DNA of 64,000 bases from Protoeuglena noctilucae (Eukaryota), in NCBI GenBank assembly GCA_958009085.1, contig OY253674.1, positions 496,001-560,000 on the forward strand, read 5' to 3'. Positions 1,093-63,732 of the stretch are shown one piece after another. The notes beneath the pieces are model-generated. The model made no database searches. It had not been told where the DNA came from and was given only the letters and a program-made list of their open reading frames with translations. Made by a program: the position numbers and the translations under genes. Numbering within the stretch: position 1 is the stretch's first letter; the number at the start of each line of letters is the position of its first letter.

Positions 1093-4000
1093 CTACATAC
1101 AAGGCGTGGGCGTGGCCTGCTGCTCCTGGCTGCGCGCCACGCTCGTCTTGAGGATCTCTTCGCAGTTGGACTTGAAAAGAGCCTCTCGGTCCACCGCAGC
1201 CTTGATCTGGCGGGCCCGCTCGTCCTCCGACAGCTGCGCATTGCCCTGCAGGAGGCGGCGTGCTGTGTTGGTCAACTCAACAGCAACGGCTTATTGACAG
1301 AGACACCCGCTCCCCGGGCCTTTGCATTCCGCCCGCCTCGCCTTGATGTACGCGAGGAGGTCCTGGGACCACATGGAGTAGGTGCGCCGGAGGTTGCTGA
1401 CCAGCGTCACCATCTCGGGGGTGACTTTGAGCATCGTGCGCAGCAGGGGCTGCAGGATGGCCTCCATGAATGACATCTGCGGGGAAGCGACGCGTCTCAA
1501 AGGGATCTGGGGATGAACGTCGGGCTCTGTGCCAGCGCCTGACAATCGCTCGCTCGGCCAGCTGCCACGGGCGCTAAGCAGTACAGCGAGCAGACCCTGC
1601 CCATCGCGAGCGACAGGGTGCGTTCGACCCCCGGCTTTTTCTGCAACTGACCTGGGAGTCCGGCACGACCACCCGGGTCTTGTCGCACATGGCTGTGACG
1701 GTGAGTCCCATTTCGGACTCCTGGTCGCCCTGGCGGAAGAACTCCGTCATCACCCTCTGCGACCACAATCACCGACACATCGCAAATATGACAGGTGATA
1801 CACGCTCGGTCACAAGTCTCCGCAACGCTGAGGGCGATCGGGCCGACGGCGATGCCGCAGCTGCAGCTACGCGCTAGCAGCCCTCGCCTCGCCCCAGAGT
1901 CGCGCCACGTCGGGGGGCTTCATCTGCGCGCCCACGTCGGCGATGTGGAGCTGCGGGACAGGAAAGGCGCGGAGTTGAGACATCGAGCAGGGACGTGCTC
2001 ATTGGGAAGAAAAAAGCTCCCCGGCTTAGTCTGACGAGACAACCCTGCGGCGGCCGTAAGCGCCACTCGCCAGGGAGGAGAGGAGGAGGAACTTGTTGTC
2101 CACGTCCTGCATCGACCTCCACAGCGCCGTGCCGCGGCCGCCTGCGGACGGGAGAGAGAGTGGGACCGTCCAGTCCCGTCACACCCGCACTTGGCAGTAC
2201 GGGGAGCCATCAGCGCCCCGCCACTCCACGGGCGGTCGCTGAGCCGGCGAGAGCATCGCCGCTGCGCTCACTCGGGATTCCCGGCGGAGGCTCGAGCTCT
2301 CCGTGCTGCTGCGCGGCCACCGTGTCCGCACATGCCGCGTCCTCTCCATCGGACCCCGACATCTCCCCCAGGGCATCCCCGCCGGGCTCGGCCTCCCGCT
2401 CGACCTGAGATTCGATCTCCTCCACCAGGAGCGTGAGGTCGCCCACCAGGTCGAAGTGCTGGGCCATGTCTGCGGGGGTGAGCAGACGCGGGGCGATGTT
2501 TGCAACTTGGCGCCTTGCCCGGCGTGGGCGTGGGCGAGCGAGCCCCGAGGCCTGCGCAAGAGAGCGCCGCGTCGGAATGGGACTCACCGGTCGAGAGCAC
2601 CGCCTCGATGATGAGCTTGCGGCAGTAGAGCTGCTGTGTCTTGGACAGGCTCGCAAACACGTTGCACTGGGGCTTCTTCATGATGAGCTTGTAGAATACG
2701 GCGAGGTGCATGTTCTCCTGGATGGCAGAGTCGTTGTACGTGATGGCCAGGTCGTGGTTGCTCTCCTTCAGGAAGGTGTTGGACACGCCCTTGTGACTGC
2801 GAACACAGGCAGGACAAACACTATGGTGACCTCATCTTATCTCATTTACTCTGGCAGATGTGCAACCTCATCTCATCTACTCCCCCCTGTGCATGGCAAC
2901 GCTCCGCGCCCGCAGCCGCAACGCCACCCCGTCGCACCCAGCCCCGCGCCACGCTCACCCCACGTCATGCGTCATGGCGGCGACCATGATGGCGAACTTG
3001 TCCAGTGGCTCAAGGATGCGGCCGAGGGTCGTCTGGGTCAGGTAGATGTACAGGCTGTGTGTGACGTCCACGGCATGGGTCCAGTTGTGGTACGGGTTGT
3101 CGGCCGCGTAGAGCTGGCTTAACTTCCCCACGAGCTCCCACAGGGGCTCCACGGCCACGATCCCCGAGTCGAAGAGGCCCAGGTCGTGGAACATGGCCAT
3201 CACGTGCAGGCGCAGGGCGGCGGGGTCTGCCTCGAGCGCGATCGGGTCCCACTCGTACCTCCGCAGCCGTGCAAAGTCAACCTCGTGGATAGAGTGCAGG
3301 GCGCGGGGCACGCTCTGCGTGCCGGAGTTGGACGGGCGCCCTCGCGCTGGCGGGGTGAAGCTGAAGGGCTGCGGGGAGGTCCCCAGGTTGAAGGAGGCCT
3401 GCGCCTGGAGGCCGCCGCTGCCCGTCTGCGGCTGCATAGCCATCGAGAGGAACTTGGACCGAGGGGTGCCGAGCTCCGAGACGAATGGGAGCATCTCCGG
3501 GGCGTACGCGTCGACCCACGCCTGGTACGTCTGGCTTTGGACCATGGAGGGCTGGCTGCCGAGCGAGATGGCCGAGGGGCGCTGGGCCGTGTAGCTGCCC
3601 ATGTGGACGTTGCGCCCGCGCACGAGGCGGTGGAGCGTCGAGACGAGGCGAGACATGGTGAACTCGATCCCGGGGGACTCGCCGTTGGGGGGCACGAAGC
3701 CGTCGGACCCAGACGAGGAGGGAAGCGGCTCCGAGGGGGTCGCGGTGTGCTGGGACGACGGGGAAGGGATGCCGTTGCCCTGGGAGGCCATGCGCTGGCG
3801 GAACGCGGCCACGGACGTGCCGGCCGACGGGGGCCCGGCGGAGCCCCCCGGCTGCGAGGCGGGGCGGGCGATGCCCGGCTCGGGCCCCGCGGTCGACGCG
3901 GGCATCGAATCGGAGACGCGGGCGAGGACGCGGCCCTTGGCAACGTAGCGGTTGACTGGGGAGGTGCCGGTGACGCCGCCCGCCCCGACGTCGTTGAAGC

Positions 4001-61959: not shown

Positions 61960-63732
61960 TCAGTGGAAGCGGTGCTCCGGGTGGAAGTGGAGCATCTCGC
62001 GGTAAATGAGCTCCCGAAGAGAGTTCCCGTCCAGCTGGATGTCCTCGTAGTCGAACTGCGGGCCAGATTCACGGCAGGAGGGTCCATGGATGGCGGCAGC
62101 CACCAACGGGCGAGCCAGCCAGCCCGCCGCGGCGCGCAGCTCACCCGGAAAGGCACGGGGCATGCAGGCTCGTCGTTGAGGTCGTGCAGGGATGCGAGCC
62201 AGGGGTGCTGCAGGGCCTCGTCGACCGTGATACGGCGTCGCGGGTCAAACACGAGCATCCGCTTGAGCAGGTCTGCGGCGGACGGAGGAGCTCTCGGAGC
62301 TGCTTGCACCCCAACATTGCTTCGGAGGCGACCCGCCGCGCATCCGCAAGCGCTGATGGCTCACCGATGGCGAGGGCCGGGGCGTGCGGGAACATGTCCT
62401 CCCAGATGACCCCCGGGGAGGGCCCGATGCCCAGCGAGTCAATGTAGGCCCGCGCACGCTCGTGCGTGATGAAGTCCAGCTGCTCCGGCGGGGGCATGCC
62501 CAGGGCTTTGACGATCTGCGGGATGAACGGTCCACCGTCGGCACTCGCGAGCGCGATGGACAACACGCCAGGCCGCACGCCCGGAGGCCGCCCCTCACCA
62601 GCGCCAGCTGATGCATGTAGTCCTTGCCCGGGAAGATGGGCCTCCTCCCCAGCAGCTCGGCCAGGATGCAGCCGACCGACCACACGTCGATGGCCCCCGT
62701 GTACCCCGAGCACGACAGCAGGAGCTCCGGGGCACGGTACCACCGCGTCACGACGTACTCCGTCATGATTTCGTGGCCGTGGGAGCCACGCGCGAGGCCA
62801 AAGTCGCAGATCTTCAGATCGCAGTTCGCGTTAACGAGCAGGTTGGAGGGCTTCAGGTCGCGGTGCAGCACGTTGGCGCTGCGGGGGTCGCGGGCGAGCA
62901 GGGGCGGGGCTCGGGTGGCGAGCGCGGTGTTGCTGGCTGCTCAGCTGCAGGGCCAGGGCCTTGTGGCTTTCCAGAACGCCAGCGGTGCTCGCCTGTGAAT
63001 GAACTTCAGGCCTCGTAGGATCTGGTAGATGAAGTACTGGCAGTGCTCGTCCGTGAGGTCCTGGTTGCTCTTGATGATCTGGTGAAGGTCCGTGTCCATG
63101 ATCTCGTAGACGATGTACACATCCTCGAACTTGGACCAGTCGGCGGGCGGCCAGAGATCCAGTATCTGCGGGGTTGGCGCACGGGCAGCGTGGCGTGACG
63201 CGCTGGGGCCAGAGCGCTGGGGATCCGCGGTGGGGCAGAGGGCATCAAGGGGGCCGTATGAGTCACACGGCGCTCGCCTGGATAATGTTCTCATGGGTTT
63301 GCACAGACTGCAGGTGGCGGAGGAGCTTGATCTCGCGCAGGGTCCGCTTGGCGTCGATGACGTTGTCGAACGCCTTGCCGATGCGCTTAATTGCCATCTC
63401 TTGCCCTGCGCGCACGAGTCGAGCCTCGTTGCCGGCAGGGGGGGGCACAGCCGCACCGTGTCACGTGCCCATAGCGCCCCGCGCGGGGCAAACACCCGCG
63501 TCTCACCCGTCAGCAGGTGCCTGGCCGAGCAGACCACCCCGTACGCCCCCTTCCCGATCGGCTTGAGCGGCTGGTAGTGCATGGGGCACTCAAAGAGCTG
63601 GCCCAGGACCATGAACTGCACGCGCCTGTCCATGGCAGGCCCGCCCATGTCCTGGCCGCCGTGCATCATGTGCCCGTTGCGCACGGTCGTTCGTGATGCC
63701 TCCGCGACCGCGACGGCATGGTCCGCGCTCAT
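61960..63732 (-). CDS. TEY-type mitogen-activated protein kinase
   Basis: [82 protein letters not shown] domain LHDLNDEP. Confidence 0.97.

Follow-up and report, generated by a model that had tools for sequence, protein, structure and literature searches.

Abundant GC-AG introns in 64 kb of GC-rich DNA from a marine green alga, probably a relative of the pedinophytes

Iwata and Gotoh (2011; PMC3033335) put the average share of GC-AG introns at 1.3% and called them "extraordinarily abundant" in species of high G+C, with shares of 39.6% in Aureococcus, 22.2% in Micromonas pusilla, 7.7% in Chlorella sp., and 2.7% in Micromonas RCC299. Work by van Baren et al. (2016; PMC4815162) found 25.6% GC donors in M. 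pusilla CCMP1545, 79% of them in introner elements, and a share of 9.7% among regular introns. Feldmesser et al. (2014; PMC4028052) reported 56% GC donors in Emiliania huxleyi, and a 2024 preprint gave 14–17% GC-AG introns for pelagophytes (bioRxiv 10.1101/2024.10.30.620910). Here we analyze a 64-kb stretch of Protoeuglena noctilucae contig OY253674.1 (positions 496,001–560,000, forward strand), which we call the window and in whose coordinates all positions are given. A sequence-only reading of this DNA had listed 26 GC-AG introns and had proposed that they are very frequent here. The window has 67.1% G+C, compared with ~65% or more in the GC-AG-rich algae.

We found that GC-AG introns make up roughly 20–30% of the introns in these 64 kb. 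A curated set of 103 introns contained 77 with GT donors and 26 with GC donors, the latter being exactly those listed by the sequence-only reading; five doubtful GC calls were kept apart. The share is about 23 of 100 when well or moderately supported sites alone are used, and ~30% when every doubtful one is added. Both 26 of 103 introns and five of the 15 RNA joints listed (see below) are far above 1–2%, and the original estimate of about a fifth was close, perhaps slightly low. The RNA-checked region and the checked genes were chosen because they hold claimed sites, which biases the GC share there upward, and the whole-window value of ~25% is therefore the fairest.

Among described systems, M. 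pusilla CCMP1545 resembles the window most in being a marine green alga of ~66% G+C with 22.2–25.6% GC-AG introns and a strongly conserved donor context. However, its GC donors are reported mainly from introners, with 9.7% in regular introns, whereas the ~25% in the window occurs in regular introns among which no family was seen. Micromonas is also described as having ~1 intron per gene, in contrast to the 5–21 introns of each gene in the window (about one per 250–450 bases of gene), and the lineage is different, as the MAPK protein of the window groups with a pedinophyte. Emiliania huxleyi, another marine alga of high G+C (65%), also has many introns and an unchanged AG acceptor, and its GC donors were verified by reverse transcription PCR and attributed by the authors to G+C content (PMC4028052); it is, however, a haptophyte, and its GC share is 56–60% rather than ~25%. 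Aureococcus anophagefferens and Pelagomonas calceolata share high G+C (~69%) and abundant GC-AG introns (14–17% or 39.6%) that were ascribed to G+C, with a standard U1 5′ end (PMC3033335; 10.1101/2024.10.30.620910), but they are stramenopiles reported to be intron-poor (0.4–0.9 per gene). The GC-AG introns of plants and animals (~1%) are U2-type in appearance, as are those of the window, where the frequency is ~20 times higher. In plants and animals, a closer fit to the consensus at the remaining donor positions compensates for the GC. The abundance seen here is thus another case of a trait published between 2011 and 2016 for GC-rich algae and not a new type of splicing. What is modestly new is a GC share of ~25% in the regular, nonrepetitive introns of a green alga that is rich in introns and is not Micromonas; in the literature that we found, this is the highest share reported for the regular introns of a green alga. 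Among the papers listed by searches of the literature on GC-AG introns in algae and on introns of Pedinophyceae sp. YPF-701, which included neither the paper on the nuclear genome of YPF-701 nor a genome paper for the present organism, none dealt with GC-AG introns of a pedinophyte.

Direct reading of the window located all 26 proposed donors at their positions and with the sequences described. An exonic AG precedes 25 of them, the exception being 2070 (CTG·GC; the dot marks the exon-intron boundary), and the donors read GCGAG at 21 sites, GCAAG at four, and GCAAC at one, so the description of donors that follow an exonic AG in all but one case and mostly read GCGAG or GCAAG was accurate (25 of 26 on either count). 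Such donors are not of the U12 type, which has the rigid motif [A/G]TATCCTT. The heptamer AGGCRAG occurs 48 times on the two strands of the window, compared with 27.6 ± 5.4 times in shuffled sequence (none of 100 shuffles reached 48), and AGGTRAG occurs 19 times compared with 9.7 ± 2.9. The enrichment of AGGCRAG is only ~1.7-fold, and roughly half of the copies do not serve as donors. As about half of the copies are expected by chance, evidence of splicing is required site by site.

Such evidence came in part from assembled RNA contigs of three runs (X1, X2, and X3), all marine metatranscriptomes from one study. These runs contain 0.38–0.60 of the sequence words sampled from 41600–51599, and four other runs, all labeled with one organism, contain all of them; X6, a DNA run, is one of the full-match runs and may be the source of the window DNA itself. 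The comparison covered 33000–52999 (20 kb of the 64 kb), and 15 of 43 joints were listed, so that a stretch without a listed joint is evidence neither for nor against splicing. Among the 15 joints listed, 10 were GT..AG (on either strand) and five were GC..AG. The five lie on the forward strand in two copies of a large membrane protein gene with a PAS domain (PAS copies 1 and 2): 33263–33347 in copy 1, and 42307–42396, 42689–42811, 42975–43079, and 43223–43371 in copy 2. Each was found in X1, X2, and X3, and all five were missing from X6, whose contig spans the stretch unbroken. No end pair other than GC..AG was possible for any of them within the allowed slide. A single reading frame is kept through the exons between the joints, and G+C at third codon positions (GC3) is 0.81–0.99 in the verified exons, with values of 0.95–0.99 in those that flank 42307–42396. 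The heptamer AGGCGAG is also present at 40646 and 43885 (+), on the coding strand and within modeled exons of PAS copy 2. At 43885, at least, it does not serve as a donor, since RNA contigs run unbroken over 43730–44515 (X1 record 3). The AGGCRAG motif is insufficient for splicing.

Two further contig pieces end at predicted splice sites. Within X3 record 13, an internal piece of 267 letters (49681–49947) matches in length the exon between introns 49562–49683 and 49951–50070 of an F-box/LRR gene (+), offset from the predicted exon by a repeated CAG, and one piece of X1 record 4, a 3941-letter contig, stops at 51286, the predicted exon edge of intron 51287–51454 (cag·GCAAGG) in an MFS/PHT4-like transporter gene (−). 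The gene finder described below also predicted these three introns.

Protein comparisons tested sites in two other genes. The spliced model of a UBP14/USP5-like gene on the plus strand, which encodes 817 aa and has 11 introns, including 18604–18708 and 19509–19619 with GC donors, is identical to residues 34–850 of P0121, an 855 aa protein from a 3083-base contig that was found by a single-exon protein search. This contig is too short for the 3.5-kb gene with its introns, which makes P0121 transcript-sized. The 19509 intron splits the second UBA domain, and the UBA profile match (2–31 of 37) stops at the exon end. Removal from RNA with the reading frame kept was thus found for the sites tested, namely the five RNA joints and the two GC introns across which P0121 is identical. 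In the MAPK gene (−), the GC introns 62879–62992 (phase 2, in the kinase domain) and 63166–63277 were assessed with P0016, a relative with 80% identity, which aligned without a gap over residues 56–401 across both junctions. Positions of the Pkinase profile run on over the junctions, from 62 to 69 at 63277 and from 115 to 118 at 62992, and the two proteins share an 11-letter stretch at the 63277 junction.

A pair of tandem paralogues, A (20014–21145) and B (21460–22252; the "secreted B" gene), both on the plus strand, allowed a GC donor to be aligned with its counterpart. Their exons have 71–95% DNA identity, those that flank the first intron have 77–86%, and A has a complete reading frame. 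The first intron interrupts the same codon in phase 1 in both, with the donor cag·GTGAGC in A (20195–20613) and cag·GCAAGG in B (21610–21786). GT and GC therefore alternate at one intron. Both genes encode small proteins with a signal-peptide-like start.

Taken together, these data confirm by independent evidence that GC-AG introns are genuinely spliced out at 10 of the 26 sites (five RNA joints, two sites in UBP14, two in MAPK, and one in the tandem paralogue), and the claim that these introns are real was borne out by RNA joints seen in three RNA runs and missing from the DNA run, together with P0121, P0016, and the paralogue. Thirteen sites have indirect or gene-finder support, and three, in a putative NTAN1 gene, are weak. 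This division bears on the possibility that the junctions were misinferred and that transcripts use nearby GT donors or retain the stretches. The 13 indirectly supported and three weak sites leave some room for such an artefact, as do the mere 1.7-fold enrichment of AGGCRAG and three false calls described below. At the 10 confirmed sites, however, it is refuted, depending on the site, by RNA contigs, by the transcript-sized P0121, by the relative P0016, or by the tandem paralogue. Moreover, a GT donor that was in the same phase and had a positive flank score was not found within 45 bases of any claimed site; the use of nearby GT donors by transcripts was one of the observations by which the sequence-only reading had said that it could be refuted. 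A decoy control also argued against artefact, and we consider this explanation extremely unlikely for the set as a whole.

The gene finder was a custom dynamic-programming program that combined codon log-odds with flank matrices for donors and acceptors, ignored donor position +2, gave GT and GC donors equal priors, and was trained first on exons with RNA support and afterward on its own predictions. Only the stronger strand was kept at each place, with correction by RNA joints, and 12 models were retained. About 11 shadow or low-scoring models were dropped, including the region 54775–60100; antisense shadows consisted mostly of false GC "introns." The main run chose 22 of the 26 claimed donors; the three in NTAN1 came up solely when the program was run loosely on their region. 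In the decoy control, in which GT, GC, GG, and GA were allowed equally, the program picked GT 57 times, GC 27 times, GA five times, and GG twice. Because GG is nearly as common in the window as GC (12,695 compared with 15,910 occurrences) yet was rarely picked, most of the GC calls are not noise.

Three GC calls of the gene finder were rejected: at 48932, 52216, and 45896, RNA has GT donors at 48920, 52072, and 45957, respectively. In view of these false calls, we regard support from the gene finder alone as moderate. Five other GC calls with weak context (6979, 24571, 36421, 47038, and 52450) were treated as doubtful and left uncounted; that at 47038, which would remove an in-frame 69-base stretch, is probably false. 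The window has one assembly gap (200 N, 59018–59217), amid a region with low-scoring gene models only. One of these models (57074–60102), which crosses the N run, uses AG·GCAAG sites at 57374 and 58530 (+) as donors, and these predicted sites may be further GC-AG introns beyond those listed by the sequence-only reading.

The remaining claimed introns were assessed gene by gene. In a PDE gene (−), the gene finder predicted 1246–1341 (aag·GCGAGG), which has no nearby GT alternative, 1757–1887 (gag·GCGAGG), and 1951–2070 (ctg·GCGAGT, without an exonic AG), the last with support from the gene finder only. For the 1887 intron, the first residue of the exon that follows corresponds to position 175 of the PDEase_I profile, and the exon aligns from its residue 1 to residue 335 of PDE4D. 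A search with a PDE exon found no match in a set of 5.8 billion proteins, and searches of the PDB with two short neighboring exons returned nothing useful, the exons being too short to score. In the PAS genes (+), the gene finder predicted 23891–23976 and 24787–24912 in copy 1, and 36043–36228 and 37007–37183 in copy 2. The two copies are ~25% identical, and when they are aligned no gap falls at the junctions 36043, 37007, or 23891; copy 1 reads through the position of the 37007 intron without an intron, and the alignment there is ungapped. The 24787 intron has gene-finder support only. At ~25% identity, the copies are too diverged to test for a change between GT and GC.

In the F-box/LRR gene (+), the introns 46805–47000 (right after the F-box motif), 47723–47817, and 50187–50327 are gene-finder predictions, as are the two at the ends of the RNA piece described above, of which 49562–49683 has the weak donor cag·GCAACC. 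At this last site, the read-through open reading frame of a relative (P0168; MTQ followed by V-T-E, the V codon beginning with GT) suggests that the relative has GT where the window has GCAACC. When an F-box/LRR exon was compared with 1.84 billion representative proteins, the sole identical match was P0125, and the others were generic LRR proteins. We dropped P0125 as evidence on splicing because its reading frame runs straight through the intron. P0122 (16517–17200 region) and P0125 (49319–49756 region) are exact-match database proteins that are both open reading frames through introns; gene calls made on window DNA in the protein collections are partly of a prokaryotic style and are unreliable.

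The candidate introns of the putative NTAN1 gene (+) are 10376–10634 (acceptor uncertain; loose-run score 10.3), 10826–10916 (score 8.6), and 11849–11966 (score 15.5), and we regard all three predictions as weak. The gene is named solely from a borderline match to the Pfam family N_Asn_amidohyd (E 0.069) that ends at most one residue from the 11849 donor, and PDB searches with pieces of the protein found no match.

The two donor classes differ in their context. The full context AG·GY[G/A]AG was present at 24 of 26 GC donors but at only 13 of 77 GT donors in the curated set, and in the subset verified by RNA, P0121, or P0016 it was present at 9/9 GC donors compared with 4/23 GT donors (Fisher p 2.5e-5). 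The greater reliance on exonic positions −2 and −1 that had been proposed is therefore evident, and it extends to +3 to +5. Donors with the full context have C at +2 in 24 of 37 cases, which is close to the value of 0.631 that intron interiors give for C/(C+T) (binomial p 0.87), and donors with weaker context comprise 64 GT and two GC. In other respects the classes are alike: median length is 120 for GC introns and 109 for GT introns, and G+C is 0.65 and 0.67. A GCAG acceptor occurs in 24/25 GC introns and 68/76 GT introns (92/101 in total). The GT donor sequence is GTGAG, and its +3 position is G in 74 of 76 cases. GCAG acceptors and GTGAG donors resemble the splice signals of the Chlamydomonas type. 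Neither class has a dominant base at +6 to +8, and the donor logos show no conservation beyond +5.

The explanation that we favor, and consider probable, is that these are ordinary U2-type introns with C in place of T at donor position +2, which drifted under GC pressure and are compensated by a strong context. GC-biased substitution pressure (67% G+C, GC3 above 0.9) would repeatedly convert the T at +2 to C. This C would be tolerated only where A at −2, G at −1, G or A at +3, A at +4, and G at +5, the positions that pair with U1 and U6, were already optimal, and weaker donors would be forced to retain T. The GC-AG introns would thus be old regular introns with drifted donors, neither a separate class nor copies of a mobile element. 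The splicing itself was observed; which way the donors drifted and why, and the role of a standard spliceosome, are what we infer.

A variant of this explanation is that T and C at +2 are selectively equivalent at otherwise perfect donors, so that base composition alone would set the ~25% share of regular introns; we think this unlikely. An altered 5′ splice-site machinery, which the sequence-only reading had suggested with a U1/U6 variant as an example, would account for the data differently: a change in U1 or U6, a base modification, or a change in a U1 snRNP protein or a U5/Prp8-type protein would relax the need for T at +2. The agreement of full-context donors with intron composition is in line with this, as it fits very weak discrimination at +2, and so is the variation of the GC-AG share at similar G+C, with reported values of 22–26% in M. 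pusilla, 1.5–2.7% in RCC299, and 7.7% in Chlorella sp. (PMC3033335; PMC4815162). Iwata and Gotoh, who term the phenomenon an enigma, propose RNA modification or snRNP proteins (PMC3033335). However, the near confinement of GC donors to the full context and the ratio of 64 GT to two GC among weak donors indicate that T at +2 is still read, and the compensation by context is the same as that known for GC-AG introns elsewhere. The U1 5′ end was also reported to be standard in Aureococcus and in both Micromonas species (PMC3033335). A search of the window for snRNA genes with Rfam gave 0 matches. We judge altered machinery to be decidedly unlikely.

The sequence-only reading had also suggested a past burst of intron-creating elements. 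In such a burst, introner-like mobile elements with a GC donor would have generated the GC introns, for which CCMP1545 is a precedent, 79% of its GC donors being reported from D-IE1 introner elements (PMC4815162). High intron turnover would suit it as well: the MAPK gene has six introns compared with one, placed elsewhere, in the contig of its nearest relative, and the PAS paralogues share one position. We compared 106 introns of the window all against all with BLASTN (word size 9, E ≤ 0.01) and obtained nine rows of 14–20 bases (E 0.001–0.009), only one pair of which included a GC intron; we regard these as chance matches. Introner elements are present in about half of the introns of CCMP1545, and a family of this kind would therefore have come to light among 106 introns. 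Introner elements are recognized by high identity over most of their length and by donor conservation well beyond +6, and the window introns showed neither; donor conservation stops at +5, and GC and GT introns are alike in length and G+C. The occurrence of GT and GC at the homologous intron of the tandem paralogues is a further argument against a burst. A burst is therefore very improbable, and this part of the earlier interpretation did not hold up, in contrast to the high frequency, the reliance on context, and the failure of GT-only predictors.

Several observations weigh against the drift-and-compensation explanation or limit the data behind it. G+C content alone is not predictive, as Micromonas RCC299, at 64% G+C, is reported to have 1.5–2.7% GC-AG introns and Chlorella sp. 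7.7% (PMC3033335; PMC4815162), and some lineage-specific factor beyond G+C may contribute. The GC share was measured on a 64-kb window of a genome. The RNA contigs come from a single study, cover 20 of the 64 kb, and yielded 15 listed joints of 43, and where RNA could test the gene finder three of its GC calls were wrong. Selection of the GC list relied in part on the motif that the gene finder's donor matrix also favors, so that weak-context GC donors are perhaps undercounted and the contrast with GT donors perhaps overstated; the verified subset, of nine GC and 23 GT donors, is small. Finally, one of the doubtful calls, 36421–36585 (+), has a weak context (aag·GCGCGG) but falls where the PAS paralogue alignment is almost free of gaps, and the donor may be real. 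If so, it would be a GC donor without A at +4 and would count against strict compensation.

The affinities of the organism were examined with the MAPK protein. In a tree of 24 proteins, the window protein and its relative P0016 together were sister to Pedinophyceae sp. YPF-701 with 100/100 support, and this clade lay inside the core-chlorophyte group with 98/96 support. The closest named relatives of the MAPK exon were green algae, and the only named relative found for UBP14 was Pedinophyceae sp. YPF-701. An origin from a haptophyte (E. huxleyi), to which the 67% G+C and the marine RNA runs had pointed, was rejected on these grounds. On the basis of a single gene tree, the organism is thus probably a marine green alga near the pedinophytes.

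P0016 is encoded at 3634–4936 of a metagenome contig of 73% G+C (L001) and is the nearest relative of the window MAPK gene (62002–63795, −). Its gene has one intron, of the GT-AG type (ttt·GTGAGT...GCAG), which separates residues 46 and 47; none of the six introns of the window gene is at this position. Two other algal contigs have MAPK introns near window residues 97 (L018) and 187 and 238–241 (L035). For the remaining genes of L001 the strand was ambiguous and no reliable intron could be called. The two old PAS paralogues have only one intron position in common. In the more recent tandem pair, intron 20835–20919 is present in copy A only, and copy B is continuous through YQKNYNTFGTWPGPR, a difference that reflects intron gain or loss between recent duplicates. 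Judged from these alignments, intron positions turn over fast in this algal group.

The RNA contigs also provided information on transcript ends. An X3 contig ends at 44539 (+) with a loose run of A, ~515 bases past the last modeled codon of PAS copy 2, and this position is likely to be the polyadenylation site of that gene. X1 record 4 joins the last exons of the F-box/LRR (+) and PHT4-like (−) genes over 50614–51286. The 3′ ends of these convergent genes overlap or abut, although a contig that covers two genes is no proof of a single transcript.

The most immediate consequence concerns annotation. Without GC donors, an annotation would mismodel about a quarter of the introns, and hence most multiexon genes; the expectation that GT-only predictors break genes here was correct, and the same has been reported for M. 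pusilla and E. huxleyi (PMC4815162; PMC4028052). The window extends the small set of GC-rich algae in which GC-AG introns are abundant to a green alga other than Micromonas, here without introner elements. Abundance in the absence of such elements makes an explanation by base composition and compensation separable from one by mobile elements. If T and C at +2 are indeed equivalent at otherwise perfect donors, and if this is due to a change of the U1 snRNP or of U6 recognition that is specific to the lineage, this lineage would provide an introner-free system in which the GC-AG "enigma" of 2011 could be resolved.

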